From: an uncultured Nitrospiraceae bacterium
Lineage (GTDB): Bacteria > Nitrospirota > Thermodesulfovibrionia > Thermodesulfovibrionales > Dissulfurispiraceae
DNA: 10,512 bases
Assembly (NCBI GenBank): GCA_947085205.1
Contig: CAMTVO010000045.1
Location: 1-10,512, forward strand
Reading direction: 5' to 3'
Position numbers and translations under genes: made by a program. Positions 3,429-7,260 of this stretch are shown here, piece after piece. The first letter of the stretch is position 1. Every line of letters begins with the position of its first letter. The notes under the pieces are model-generated. The model had not been told where the DNA came from. It did not search any database and worked only from the letters and a program-made list of their open reading frames with translations.

Positions 3429-4727
3429 GTGCACATTGCAGTAATCGGAACAGGTTATGTAGGACTCGTTACAGGCGCATGCTTTTCAGAATTCGGCGTC
3501 TTCGTAACCTGCGTTGATAAAGATAAAAATAAGACAGAGTCTTTGAAACAAGGAGCTATCCCTTTTTATGAACCAGGCCTCGAAGAGCTTGTAAAGAGAA
3601 ATATCAAGCAAGGCAGACTGAAATTCACAACAGACATCGGAGAAGCAATCGAAGAATCGCTCGTCATCTTTATTGCCGTCGGCACACCTCCGAGAGAAGA
3701 CGGCTCTGCTGACCTCAGTTATGTGGATGAGGTTTCAAAAGAGATTGCAAACCATATAAAAAGCTACAAGGTCATCGTAACAAAAAGCACTGTGCCTGTA
3801 GGGACAGGAGAAAGAATAAGGGGTATAATCTCTCAGAATCTCAAAGAAGAGGTCGATTTCGATATAGTCTCGAATCCTGAATTCCTCCGAGAAGGCGCTG
3901 CGATAGAGGATTTCATGAGGCCGAACAGGGTTGTCATAGGAGCAAAGAGCCAGCAGGCAATAGCGATTATGAAAGATCTCTACAAGCCTCTCTATCTCAT
4001 CGAGACATCATTTGTAATAACAAATATAGAAACAGCGGAGCTTATAAAATACGCCTCAAACTCTTTCCTTGCCGCAAAAATCTCGTTTATCAATGAAATG
4101 GCGATGCTGTGCGAAAAGGTAGGTGCAGATGTTAATGTAGTTGCAAAAGGAATGGGGCTTGACGGAAGGATAGGGACGAAGTTCCTCCATGCAGGGCCGG
4201 GATTCGGCGGTTCATGTTTTCCTAAAGATACAAAGGCATTATTAAAAATCGCCGCAGACAAAGGCGTGAAGTTAAGTATAGTCGATGCGGCAATAAAGGC
4301 GAATGAAAATCAACTGGTGTGGGCAGCGGACAAGATTGAAAGTGCTTTTAATGACATCAACGGCAAAACTATTGCCGTTTTGGGGCTATCCTTCAAGCCC
4401 AATACAGACGACATAAGAGAAGCGCCTGCGATTTTCATTATTCAAAGCCTTTTAAAAGAAGGGGCGGCTGTAAACGCATACGACCCTGTTGCAATGGATA
4501 ATACAAAGGCAATACTGCCTGATATAACATATTGCAAAGATGCATACGATGCATGCGAAAATGCAGACGCTGTTGTCATTGTCACAGAATGGAACCAGTT
4601 CAGAAACCTCGATTTGGAGAGGCTTGCCAAGCTTTTGAAGCAGCCCTATTTCTTTGATCTCAGAAATATATATGACCCTCAGAGAATGAAAACGCTGGGA
4701 TTCAGATACTACTCTATCGGCCGATAA
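3429..4727 (+). CDS. ugd: UDP-glucose 6-dehydrogenase
   Basis: GTG start with SD AAGGAG (3415-3420). Motifs IGTGYVGL (Rossmann), AVGTP, KSTVPVGT, SNPEFLREG, ELIKYASN, GFGGSCFPKD (catalytic Cys), FKPNTDDIRE and DLRN. Confidence 0.97.
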   Translation: MHIAVIGTGYVGLVTGACFSEFGVFVTCVDKDKNKTESLKQGAIPFYEPGLEELVKRNIKQGRLKFTTDIGEAIEESLVIFIAVGTPPREDGSADLSYVDEVSKEIANHIKSYKVIVTKSTVPVGTGERIRGIISQNLKEEVDFDIVSNPEFLREGAAIEDFMRPNRVVIGAKSQQAIAIMKDLYKPLYLIETSFVITNIETAELIKYASNSFLAAKISFINEMAMLCEKVGADVNVVAKGMGLDGRIGTKFLHAGPGFGGSCFPKDTKALLKIAADKGVKLSIVDAAIKANENQLVWAADKIESAFNDINGKTIAVLGLSFKPNTDDIREAPAIFIIQSLLKEGAAVNAYDPVAMDNTKAILPDITYCKDAYDACENADAVVIVTEWNQFRNLDLERLAKLLKQPYFFDLRNIYDPQRMKTLGFRYYSIGR

Positions 4728-4755
4728 TCTTTCTGCCAATATGCGAGGTCTTAAC

Positions 4756-4923
4756 GTGAAGTGTAAAGAATGCAATGGCGAGCTGAGGTTGATTATCGGT
4801 TGAAAGACCGTATATTTCCGCTGCATGGAGTGCGGCATGGAGTTTAAGGTTTCTGAATATATCGATGAAATTGACGGCGATACATGGGACAGGATAGCCA
4901 TCAGGCCATGTAATCGAGCATAA
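4756..4923 (+). CDS. Small dual-CXXC (zinc-ribbon-like) protein with in-frame UGA; probable selenoprotein, 55 aa
   Basis: SD GAGGT (4745-4749) then GTG 4756. Translation MKCKECNGELRLIIG-U(TGA 4801-4803)-KTVYFRCMECGMEFKVSEYIDEIDGDTWDRIAIRPCNRA*. Fills the ugd-NYN gap and has a SECIS-like hairpin after the UGA. An in-frame ATG at 4741 is an alternative start. Confidence 0.85.
4805..4852 (+). promoter_or_regulatory. Putative bacterial SECIS element
   Basis: Upper stem GCUGCA (4820-4825)/UGCGGC (4831-4836) with loop UGGAG; UUCC (4816-4819)/GGAG (4839-4842) after an AU bulge; lower stem AGACC/GGUUU. The G-containing loop starts 22 nt after the UGA. Confidence 0.7.
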
Positions 4924-4935
4924 GGGAGGAATGTC

Positions 4936-5463
4936 ATTTCTTATATCATAATCGACGGATACAATGTCATCGGGATTTTCCATAAGGATATGGAAAAGGC
5001 GAGGGACGGGTTTGTTGACCTTCTGATAGGCTACAGAAAAATAAAGATGCATGACATCACAGTGGTCTTCGACGGACACAAGAGCGGCTCAGGTATTGAG
5101 AATGTGGCAGTTAGAGGGGGAGTGAAAATCATCTATTCAAGACTCGGAGACCGGGCTGATGATGTTATAAAGAGGCTTATATCGAAGGACAGAAGGGAAT
5201 GGATTGTGGTGACTTCTGACAGAGGCATTGCTGACCATGCATGGTCTGTGAATTCAATACCGATACCGTCAGACAGGTTTTTCGAGACAGTATCAAAGCA
5301 GATAAATCGGAATAACGCAGAAACAGAAACTACAGCCAAAGATGCCGATGAGTTTTTATACAAAGACCTTGATGATGCCGAATATTCCAATTCTTTAAAA
5401 GGCAATCCGAATAAGCTTTCAAAAAAAGAAAAAGCGGTCAGAAGGGCATTGAGCAAATTATAA
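4936..5463 (+). CDS. NYN domain (YacP/Rae1-like, PIN fold) putative endoribonuclease, probable AUU start
   Basis: The frame extends upstream of ATG 4990 to give SYIIIDGYNVIG (the DGYN motif), followed by VVFDG, ADDVI and VVTSDR. SD GGGAGG (4924-4929) lies 6 nt before in-frame ATT 4936. No in-frame ATG/GTG/TTG occurs between TAA 4923 and the motif. Confidence 0.85.
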   Translation: MSYIIIDGYNVIGIFHKDMEKARDGFVDLLIGYRKIKMHDITVVFDGHKSGSGIENVAVRGGVKIIYSRLGDRADDVIKRLISKDRREWIVVTSDRGIADHAWSVNSIPIPSDRFFETVSKQINRNNAETETTAKDADEFLYKDLDDAEYSNSLKGNPNKLSKKEKAVRRALSKL

Positions 5464-5465
5464 AA

Positions 5466-6359
5466 ATGGTTAATTGGTTTTTAAAGCTTAGACCTGCTGA
5501 TACTATAACCGCCTTATTCAGTTTTCTTCTTTTAATTCTAACTGCTATTTTTTACAAAAAAATCCCATCTGCGGGTTACCTCATGCTTATATATGCGTCA
5601 TTGATATTTTTTCAATTAACTGTTGTGCGTTTAAGCAGGCTTAACTTATTTCTCACATTGACCCGTGACATAGTATTCCCTGTAATCAGCGTCCTTATTA
5701 TATTTGACAGCCTTGAATTGATTGTTCACAATATCAATCCACAGGATCTGGACTATTTTCTTATAAGGCTTGATTATCTTATCTTTGGGGTTCATCCCAC
5801 CGTTGTTTTGGAAAAGATTATGAATCCATTGTTAACCGATGTTCTTCAAGTCGCTTACTCCACATACTATTTTCTGCCGGTAATGCTGGGTGTGGCGCTT
5901 AAACTGAAAGGCGGGGATGAAGACTTTGAAAAGTCCCTTTTTTTGATACTTCTGTGTTTTTATCTCTCTTATGTGGGTTATGTGCTTGTGCCTGCCCTTG
6001 GTCCGAGGTATGCGATGGAGCATCTCCATGAAGGAGAACTGGCAGGTTTTCTGGTATCCCGGCCCATTCAGGATACATTAAATCTTCTGGAGGGGATTAA
6101 GAGGAATGCTTTCCCCAGCGGACATACAGGGGTTACTCTTATAGTGCTGTTTTTGGCGTTCCGGTATGTAAGGCGGCTTTTCTGGATAATGTTGACTCCG
6201 GCGATACTTCTAATTATTGCCACCGTGTACTGCAGGTATCACTATGTGATTGATGTTATCGCAGGGATATTACTGACTGTTGTTACAATTGCTGTCGGTG
6301 AAGTATACTATTTCTTGCACAAAAGAAGAAATAATGAGCTTGCCAAACACCAAAACTAA
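5466..6359 (+). CDS. PAP2-superfamily polytopic membrane phosphatase/phosphotransferase (Aur1/IPC-synthase-like)
   Basis: Many hydrophobic helices; motifs PALGPR, AFPSGHT and RYHYVIDVIAG. Confidence 0.88.
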   Translation: MVNWFLKLRPADTITALFSFLLLILTAIFYKKIPSAGYLMLIYASLIFFQLTVVRLSRLNLFLTLTRDIVFPVISVLIIFDSLELIVHNINPQDLDYFLIRLDYLIFGVHPTVVLEKIMNPLLTDVLQVAYSTYYFLPVMLGVALKLKGGDEDFEKSLFLILLCFYLSYVGYVLVPALGPRYAMEHLHEGELAGFLVSRPIQDTLNLLEGIKRNAFPSGHTGVTLIVLFLAFRYVRRLFWIMLTPAILLIIATVYCRYHYVIDVIAGILLTVVTIAVGEVYYFLHKRRNNELAKHQN

Positions 6360-6411
6360 GGGAGGAATAATCATTGAGGAGAGAGACAATAAAACTTCCA
6401 AGAGCGGGACA

Positions 6412-7260
6412 ATGATACAGAGCATGACAGGTTTTGGTTCTGCGGAAAGGGATGGATTCAGGGTTGAGGTGCGCTCCTTAAATCACAAATACATTGATAT
6501 TTCTGTCAGGATGCCGTCTGTTTTAATGGAGCACGAAATGCCTATCAGGAACCTGATTAAGGAGAGGTTTACGAGGGGCAAATTTGATGTTAATATATCA
6601 CTTACGGATAAAAGGCAGTTGAAGGTGTGCGTTAACAAAGATATGGCAAAGGCTATGTACAACGCATTTTCGGAACTCCAGAAAGAATTATCTTTGCCGG
6701 GCTCTCTGAGTATCGACTTTTTTTCGGGGTACAGGGAGTTTTTAATGTCAGAAGAGCCGGAATATAATATAGAAGCCTTGTTCAGCGCCCTTAATGACGC
6801 TTTATCAAAGGTCGAGGAGATGCGGAGAAGCGAAGGCGAAACTCTGCGAGGAGAACTCGGAGAGCGGCTGAAAAGGCTCGAAAATATGCAGAGTGAAATA
6901 GAAGGGCTTTCAAAGGGGATGGCAGCTTCATATAAAAAAACGATTTCAAAGAGAATAGCCGAGCTTGTTGCCAATCTGTTGATAGACGAGACAAGGCTTG
7001 CGCAGGAAGTCGCCCTTATGGCACAGAAAAGTGACATAACGGAGGAGTTGGCGAGGTTTAAGAGCCATATACAGCAGTTTCATTCTTCTTTGGACAATGG
7101 AGATGTCATCGGCAGAAAGCTCGATTTTATTCTGCAGGAGATGAACAGGGAGTCAAATACCATCGCATCGAAGACCGATGATGTAAGGGTTATCAATTTG
7201 ACTATAGATATGAAGACCGACATGGAAAAGCTCAGGGAGCAGGTTCAGAATATTCAGTAG
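6412..7260 (+). CDS. yicC: YicC/YloC family endoribonuclease
   Basis: MIQSMTGFG N-terminus, EVRSLNHKY, DITEELARFKSH, GRKLDFILQEMNRESNTIASK, EKLREQVQNIQ. Standard position upstream of remA-gmk. The start may be further upstream (ATT 6373). Confidence 0.95.
   Translation: MIQSMTGFGSAERDGFRVEVRSLNHKYIDISVRMPSVLMEHEMPIRNLIKERFTRGKFDVNISLTDKRQLKVCVNKDMAKAMYNAFSELQKELSLPGSLSIDFFSGYREFLMSEEPEYNIEALFSALNDALSKVEEMRRSEGETLRGELGERLKRLENMQSEIEGLSKGMAASYKKTISKRIAELVANLLIDETRLAQEVALMAQKSDITEELARFKSHIQQFHSSLDNGDVIGRKLDFILQEMNRESNTIASKTDDVRVINLTIDMKTDMEKLREQVQNIQ

Follow-up and report, generated by a model that had tools for sequence, protein, structure and literature searches.

The closest described relatives of the gene analysed here are the proteins of the family OS_HP3, reported by Zhang and Gladyshev in 2007 as a predicted and then new selenoprotein family; its entry in that survey holds two members, no Cys homologues and a SECIS-like hairpin, and gives no function (PMC1976440). 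According to the entries on it in a 2026 review (PMC13188914), OS_HP3 is the family of the model NF041197, the 'dual CXXC motif small (seleno)protein', which is listed there a second time as 'hypothetical protein DW' from the deep-Sep paper, and its motif is given as RxU or GxU. Desulfosarcina are named as carriers in the part of the deep-Sep paper that concerns the family (PMC12013277). A literature search under the family names found no experimental work, including 75Se labelling or mass spectrometry, on NF041197 proteins. The model itself is an NCBIfam equivalog (CxxC_Se_CxxC) with a curated cut-off of 40 bits.

The window, by which we mean the whole stretch of 10,512 bp that was analysed, belongs to a genome of 65 contigs that is 89.7% complete. 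Its gene order is trpE-G-D (minus strand), UDP-glucose dehydrogenase (UGDH), the selenoprotein gene, a YacP-like NYN gene, PAP2, yicC, remA, gmk, rpoZ, coaBC and a TPR gene. The features discussed below are collected in Table 1.

Table 1. Features of the selenoprotein locus, numbered from the first base of the window.
Feature	Coordinates	Strand	Remarks
Promoter-like site, TTCAGA-16 nt spacer-GATAAT	4701..4728	+	Consensus match only
Shine-Dalgarno-like GAGG	4746..4749	+	6 nt upstream of the GTG start, from the sequence
Dual-CXXC small selenoprotein CDS (predicted)	4756..4923	+	55 residues; GTG start at 4756; TGA taken as Sec at codon 16; TAA stop at 4921-4923; NF041197 match
In-frame TGA, predicted Sec codon, residue 16	4801..4803	+	Cys codons here in 7/7 stop-free homologues; same in an independent run
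SECIS-like hairpin	4816..4842	+	Lower stem 4816-4819/4839-4842, AU bulge, upper stem 4820-4826/4830-4836, loop GGA 4827-4829; overlaps the R-C-M-E-C-G codons
GGGAGG ribosome-binding site of the NYN gene	4924..4929	+	Directly after the TAA stop
YacP-like NYN-domain gene	4936..5463	+	ATT start (predicted) 12 nt past the TAA of the selenoprotein gene; PF05991, 83.2 bits; no sequence difference in run X2

An earlier note on this DNA had picked out a 55-codon frame, opened by a GTG behind a Shine-Dalgarno sequence and interrupted by a TGA at codon 16, that was hidden from the track of open reading frames. Both the sequence and the table-11 ORF list bear this out: the list holds no plus-strand ORF at the locus, the frame being left out because of its in-frame TGA. 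With the TGA read as selenocysteine (Sec, U), the 55 residues are VKCKECNGELRLIIG-U-KTVYFRCMECGMEFKVSEYIDEIDGDTWDRIAIRPCNRA, and the layout is CxxC-x9-U-x6-CxxC, with C3-x2-C6 (CKEC), U16 and C23-x2-C26 (CMEC) followed by an acidic stretch and a PCNRA tail. A contig from an independent DNA run of another study (X2) is identical to the window over 4723-5189, and this excludes an assembly or sequencing error as the source of the TGA. Two long opposite-strand ORFs (4452-4937 and 4714-5079) were rejected, as they run into the UGDH and NYN genes and match no Pfam family. In a further run (X6), a related strain (90-95% alike) is represented by contigs that match the end of the UGDH gene and the NYN gene and diverge at 4702 and 4916, such that the stretch with the selenoprotein gene must differ or be replaced in that population. 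A 5-bp hairpin, CGGTT GAAA GACCG at 4797-4810, encloses the UGA itself and was flagged as terminator-like.

The signals upstream of the start codon vary among homologues. The window copy has a Shine-Dalgarno sequence and its GATAAT box lies at 4723-4728. In 15 of 50 homologous loci (among others L020, L022-L024, L027-L029, L047, L049, L051-L053 and L055) a -10-like box (TGGTATATT, TATAAT or TATACT) ends 5-9 nt upstream of the start codon and no Shine-Dalgarno sequence is seen, an arrangement that suggests leaderless or near-leaderless mRNAs; some of the remaining loci have the same box 25-35 nt upstream.

Searched with U read as C, the protein matches the NF041197 profile at 60.7 bits (E 1.1e-16; residues 3-54 on profile positions 1-52 of 53), and the family that the earlier note had suggested is thus the correct one. 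A six-frame scan of the whole genome found a single copy, at 51.1 bits with one TGA read through. Pfam gave nothing above threshold for the 55-residue protein, with zinc-ribbon models below their cut-offs. Like NF041197/OS_HP3, the window copy is some 55 residues long, with Sec placed between two CXXC motifs and a SECIS-like hairpin after the UGA, and no structural difference from the family was found. The published OS_HP3 examples, as far as these sources describe them, are from Olavius symbionts and Desulfosarcina, whereas the window copy is from a genome near Nitrospirota / Thermodesulfovibrionales MAGs: the closest named relatives of the gene are in MAGs with these labels, at 89% identity in a search of genome contigs with this single protein that gave only six close relatives. 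The residue before U in the window copy is Gly (IIGU), to be set beside the RxU or GxU of the review entry. No fused or longer forms of the protein were seen among 5612 candidates, which is weak evidence.

The window gene is an ordinary member of a known, curated and computationally defined selenoprotein family, not a new one, and its value as a discovery is small, given that a curated NCBIfam model exists and the family appears in selenoproteome surveys from 2007 to 2026. It does illustrate that a reader without tools is able to spot a true Sec gene. In protein databases the family is almost invisible. Of 18 relatives found there, 16 are C-terminal fragments of 31-37 residues, called from Met24 within the second CxxC and named 'hypothetical protein'; the other two are full-length, and one of these, from Candidatus Magnetobacterium, bears the family name. 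Gene callers systematically cut the NF041197 family at the TGA.

The reading of the TGA as Sec was examined in homologues from two sets of genomes, a group of related genomes and an even sample of 401 genomes of the phylum. In the related genomes 53 of 61 have an NF041197 match, and all 55 matches listed contain exactly one TGA. In the phylum sample 182 of 401 genomes have a match; among the 150 matches listed (38 more lie outside this list) 143 contain one TGA and seven contain none, and when the loci of these seven were retrieved codon 16 proved to be TGT or TGC in every one. All 30 of the relatives' loci examined repeat the 55-codon layout of the window gene and its TGA at codon 16, as do 13 further Sec forms from the phylum sample, and the TGA also occupies this codon in six of six loci from genome contigs and ten of 14 metagenome loci, the other four metagenome loci being Cys forms. 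Such recurrence is far more than chance would give. No residue other than Sec (TGA) or Cys was found at position 16 among the homologues examined, Trp and Arg included, which supports the selenoprotein reading of the earlier note.

The two halves of the frame are conserved alike. In 50 aligned homologues C3, C6, U/C16, C23, C26 and Y35 are invariant, and L12, D40, W44, R50 and R54 are at least 90% conserved. Nucleotide diversity at codon positions 1, 2 and 3 is 0.44, 0.34 and 0.65 before the TGA and 0.35, 0.28 and 0.56 after it, such that conservation does continue past the TGA and the frame, to judge by these values, evolves as coding sequence on both sides. TGA is also a normal stop codon, ending trpG in the window and many homologues' own frames, and global recoding of TGA is therefore excluded. 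An alternative code with TGA as Trp or Gly was ruled out on this ground and because column 16 otherwise holds Cys and never Trp or Gly.

Immediately downstream is the SECIS-like stem-loop that had been noticed at the outset, and its UGGAG (4826-4830) does begin 22 nt after the UGA. The upper stem of 7 bp begins 16 nt after the TGA, and a 4-bp lower stem extends the window hairpin to 12 nt after the UGA, a geometry that we take to fit bacterial SECIS elements. Folding of 30 homologues with RNAalifold gave one consensus element, with a 7-bp stem and a 3-nt loop (mostly GGA). Across 55 distinct Sec forms 93.8% of cells are paired versus 18-50% with slid partners, and the covariation score is 0.206 versus 0.118 in shuffles, with none of 500 shuffles reaching it; compensatory change is seen in only two of the seven pairs, the two end pairs. 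The stem is formed by the codons of the conserved RCxxCG, and protein constraint may therefore explain part of its conservation. Cys forms retain the CxxC motif and are hence a useful control. Mean local folding energy is -10.0 kcal/mol in 43 Sec forms and -3.8 kcal/mol in the seven Cys forms, which stand for about four independent lineages, and a single Cys form (L054) keeps a strong fold, at -9.2 kcal/mol. The hairpin is retained in forms with TGA at codon 16 and eroded in those with a Cys codon there.

The features by which bacterial selenoproteins have been recognised (PMC1976440) are found here, namely an in-frame TGA that is conserved in homologues and aligned with Cys in others, and a stem-loop just downstream of the UGA with a G in its apical loop. 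The UGA at codon 16 is almost certainly read as Sec, and the gene is predicted to encode a genuine selenoprotein of the NF041197 family.

The predicted Sec machinery of the source genome is complete: the earlier note had proposed looking for selA, selB, selC and selD, and SelA (633.6 bits), SelB (384.6 bits), SelD (330.4 bits) and a tRNA-Sec (71.4 bits, anticodon TCA) were all found. What that note had named as speaking against a selenoprotein, a non-Cys residue at position 16, no conservation past the TGA or no Sec machinery in the genome, was in no case observed. The genome's own selD (contig C19, 28630-29544) has one in-frame TGA, and a 6-bp hairpin with a GGC loop begins 11 nt beyond it, in the same style as the hairpin of the window gene.

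In the Nitrospirota NF041197 tracks the Sec trait very closely. In the phylum sample selA is present in 202 of 401 genomes and its tallies by family mirror those of NF041197, which by comparison of the genome lists occurs in roughly 175 of the 202 selA-positive genomes. Families f1, f10 and f25 have selA in 36/37, 15/15 and 37/38 genomes and NF041197 in 32/37, 15/15 and 31/38 respectively, and the 20 families without selA have NF041197 in none of 190 genomes; family f22 is an exception, with selA in 3/3 and NF041197 in 0/3. Eight listed genomes of the class lack a selA match, and of these three have a Cys form, four a TGA form and one neither; the other four of the seven genomes with a Cys form have selA. 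These tallies are descriptions and not tests, because related genomes are not independent.

Structure prediction with AlphaFold2 from the alignment of 50 homologues gave a model of moderate confidence (mean pLDDT 68.8, pTM 0.43), with strands at 9-14, 19-23 and 29-31, helices at 32-35 and 41-48, and a disordered tail. The first two strands are located between the CxxC knuckles, and residue 16 falls in the turn that joins them. A fold search over 48,161 chains gave nothing at Z 5 or above (best Z 3.3), and the weak matches are for the most part to zinc ribbons (those of RNA polymerase subunits, NrdR and topoisomerase I) and otherwise to Rieske cluster-binding loops. A sequence search of the PDB gave zinc-finger noise and no family-specific match, and a search of the ESM Atlas with a natural Cys homologue gave only its own family and generic zinc ribbons. 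On this model Sec16 would sit at a turn between two strands of what is probably a zinc ribbon. The four invariant Cys would fit a metal site, in keeping with the Zn or Fe binding proposed at the outset. The suggested pairing of Sec16 with Cys52 fared less well: in the alignment 35 of 43 Sec forms and three of seven Cys forms have Cys52, and the rest (8/43 and 4/7) have Ser, Ala or Gly there; because Cys52 is not conserved, it is unlikely to be an obligatory partner of Sec16. It may assist in most members but cannot be essential.

Several known protein types share parts of this plan. Zinc-ribbon modules (the N-terminal ribbons of Rpb9/RPA12, NrdR, topoisomerase I and S27e) have two CxxC knuckles separated by a beta-hairpin, as is predicted here, although the structural matches are weak (Z 2.8-3.3) and the sequence matches sub-threshold; these modules are without Sec at the hairpin tip, and NF041197 adds a conserved acidic helix (EYIDEID..W) and an RP[C/S]NR[A/V] tail. 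Rubredoxin and rubrerythrin-like Fe(Cys)4 proteins are also small proteins of anaerobes with four Cys in two CxxC(G) knuckles, but the window protein differs in spacing and in its C-terminal helix, and its only hit of this kind, to the rubrerythrin-like profile NF033497, is below the cut-off (15.6 bits versus 32, with 10 residues matched). In MsrB / SelR enzymes two CxxC pairs bind a structural Zn and the catalytic Sec or Cys is a separate residue; these proteins have about 130 residues and another fold, and no search gave a sequence or fold match between them and the window protein.

Downstream, the YacP-like NYN gene is likely to be co-transcribed with the selenoprotein gene. In this gene, which would encode an RNase of the Rae1 type, the conserved IIIDGYNV motif is not preceded by any ATG, GTG or TTG start. 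Instead, a GGAGG box is followed 5-8 nt later by an ATT, three codons before IIIDGYNV, and this ATT is kept in at least 14 loci (among them, besides the window, L020, L023, L025, L027, L028, L030, L031, L035, L069, L071, L074 and L088); the position is ATC or ATA in three loci and TTG or ATG in others. The ATT looks like a conserved AUU start codon. Further along, the longest yicC frame (6280-7260) overlaps the PAP2 gene (5466-6359) by 80 bases, and its YicC domain begins only at residue 46, the true start probably being further downstream.

Neighbouring genes vary between lineages and give no consistent functional clue. Among 30 relatives' loci, 18 have an NYN gene and 15 a PAP2 gene at a distance of no more than 1.5 kb. 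In other lineages rpsT is directly downstream in five loci and aspS directly upstream in five loci and in L080, with gltX (one locus), rplM(-rpsI) (two) and an HflX-type GTPase (one) as rarer neighbours, and further lineages have genes for cytochromes c, DUF3786, purH-like or DsbC-like proteins. A translation or RNA theme among these neighbours is suggestive but weak. Two families of Cys-rich proteins of about 170-207 residues also flank the gene in relatives. One, a CxxCxxCC-type protein of about 190 residues, is directly downstream in nine loci (L021, L023, L027, L030, L032, L037, L039, L044 and L045) and scores 24.5 bits (L027) and 16.4 bits (L044) against PF03692, whose cut-off is 23; the other is divergently encoded upstream in seven loci (L023, L025, L033, L035, L038, L045 and L048) and has no Pfam match. 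Neither was found by tblastn in the source genome (at its 89.7% completeness), and they are therefore not obligatory partners there.

The best explanation for the locus, to which we give a probability of about 0.85, is that the gene is an intact NF041197 member whose UGA16 is decoded as Sec by SelB and tRNA-Sec, aided by the hairpin at 4816-4842, and whose product may be a metal-held ribbon with an exposed selenol. C3, C6, C23 and C26 would likely hold one metal ion, Zn or, as in rubredoxin, Fe, in a zinc-ribbon fold. Sec16 might then be a reactive selenol, exposed on a small protein that acts on a partner in redox chemistry, sulfur/selenium relay or metal handling; this functional part, a structural metal site carrying an exposed selenol for redox or relay, is tentative, and we put it somewhat below even odds. 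That the TGA is instead an ordinary stop, arising by nonsense mutation or sequencing error and leaving a 15-codon remnant and an unrelated frame or a pseudogene, is scarcely credible. The genome does use TGA as a normal stop at trpG, and gene callers treat this one as a stop to produce the C-terminal fragments that fill the databases, but the constancy of TGA at this codon with Cys in the remaining homologues, the coding-type conservation on both sides, the identical sequence in the independent run and the complete Sec machinery all argue against it. It is unlikely, though less strikingly so, that residue 16 is itself part of the metal site, with four Cys and Sec binding Fe, Ni, Hg, another soft metal or a small cluster in a rubredoxin-like electron carrier or metal chaperone. 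Five invariant Cys/Sec positions would suit such a site, as would the sub-threshold matches to a rubrerythrin-like domain and to HypA (12.4 bits) and the weak structural match (Z 2.9, with an rmsd of 1.5 over 32 residues) to Rieske cluster-binding subdomains; none of these matches reaches its threshold, however, and all are typical of any CxxC...CxxC knuckle pair, and the model has residue 16 outside both knuckles.

The remaining explanations look to the neighbouring genes. A zinc ribbon associated with translation or RNA, bound to the ribosome or to an RNase with Sec as a redox switch, would accord with the frequent YacP-like NYN RNase gene downstream, with the ribosomal, aminoacyl-tRNA synthetase and GTPase genes that adjoin the gene elsewhere, and with a resemblance, albeit weak, to the zinc ribbons of S27e, L31, IF2-beta and RNA-polymerase subunits. 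But the genomes are not independent and these contexts reduce to about six at the level of lineages, among a dozen; the other lineages have the cytochrome, DUF3786, purH-like or DsbC-like neighbours, no match is significant, and the protein is roughly neutral with an acidic helix where typical ribosomal proteins are basic, all of which leaves the proposal improbable. Less probable again is that the frame is a selenium-sensing leader, in which ribosomes must read through UGA16 to reach the RNase gene with its weak ATT start and the peptide is secondary. The TAA stop followed immediately by GGGAGG and the ATT start is what such a leader would need, and the ATT is conserved, yet the peptide is strongly conserved over its full length with invariant residues past the UGA, unrelated genes adjoin the selenoprotein gene in other lineages, the RNase gene is still ATT-started in the nine loci in which the CxxCxxCC gene lies in between, and Cys forms persist in genomes without selA. 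We also regard as doubtful, to much the same degree as the RNA-associated ribbon, a wider view in which the protein belongs to the core selenoproteins of nearly all Sec-using anaerobic Nitrospirota, its exposed selenol serving RNA or translation quality control or a selenium/sulfur relay, and in which Sec decoding also gates the ATT-started YacP/Rae1-like RNase gene.

On the preferred reading, a 55-residue NF041197 selenoprotein with one predicted exposed Sec would lend itself readily to expression, metal analysis and structural study. The sole RNA run found, a metatranscriptome (X10), has coverage restricted to 5081-5287 of a relative, a stretch outside the selenoprotein gene and hence uninformative about it. 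One genome of family f25 (G174) has three copies of the gene. Two of these are followed by an ArsR-type regulator gene, one of them near an AIR-synthase-like gene and the other near a DsrE-like gene, and the third has an AIR-synthase-like fragment nearby.
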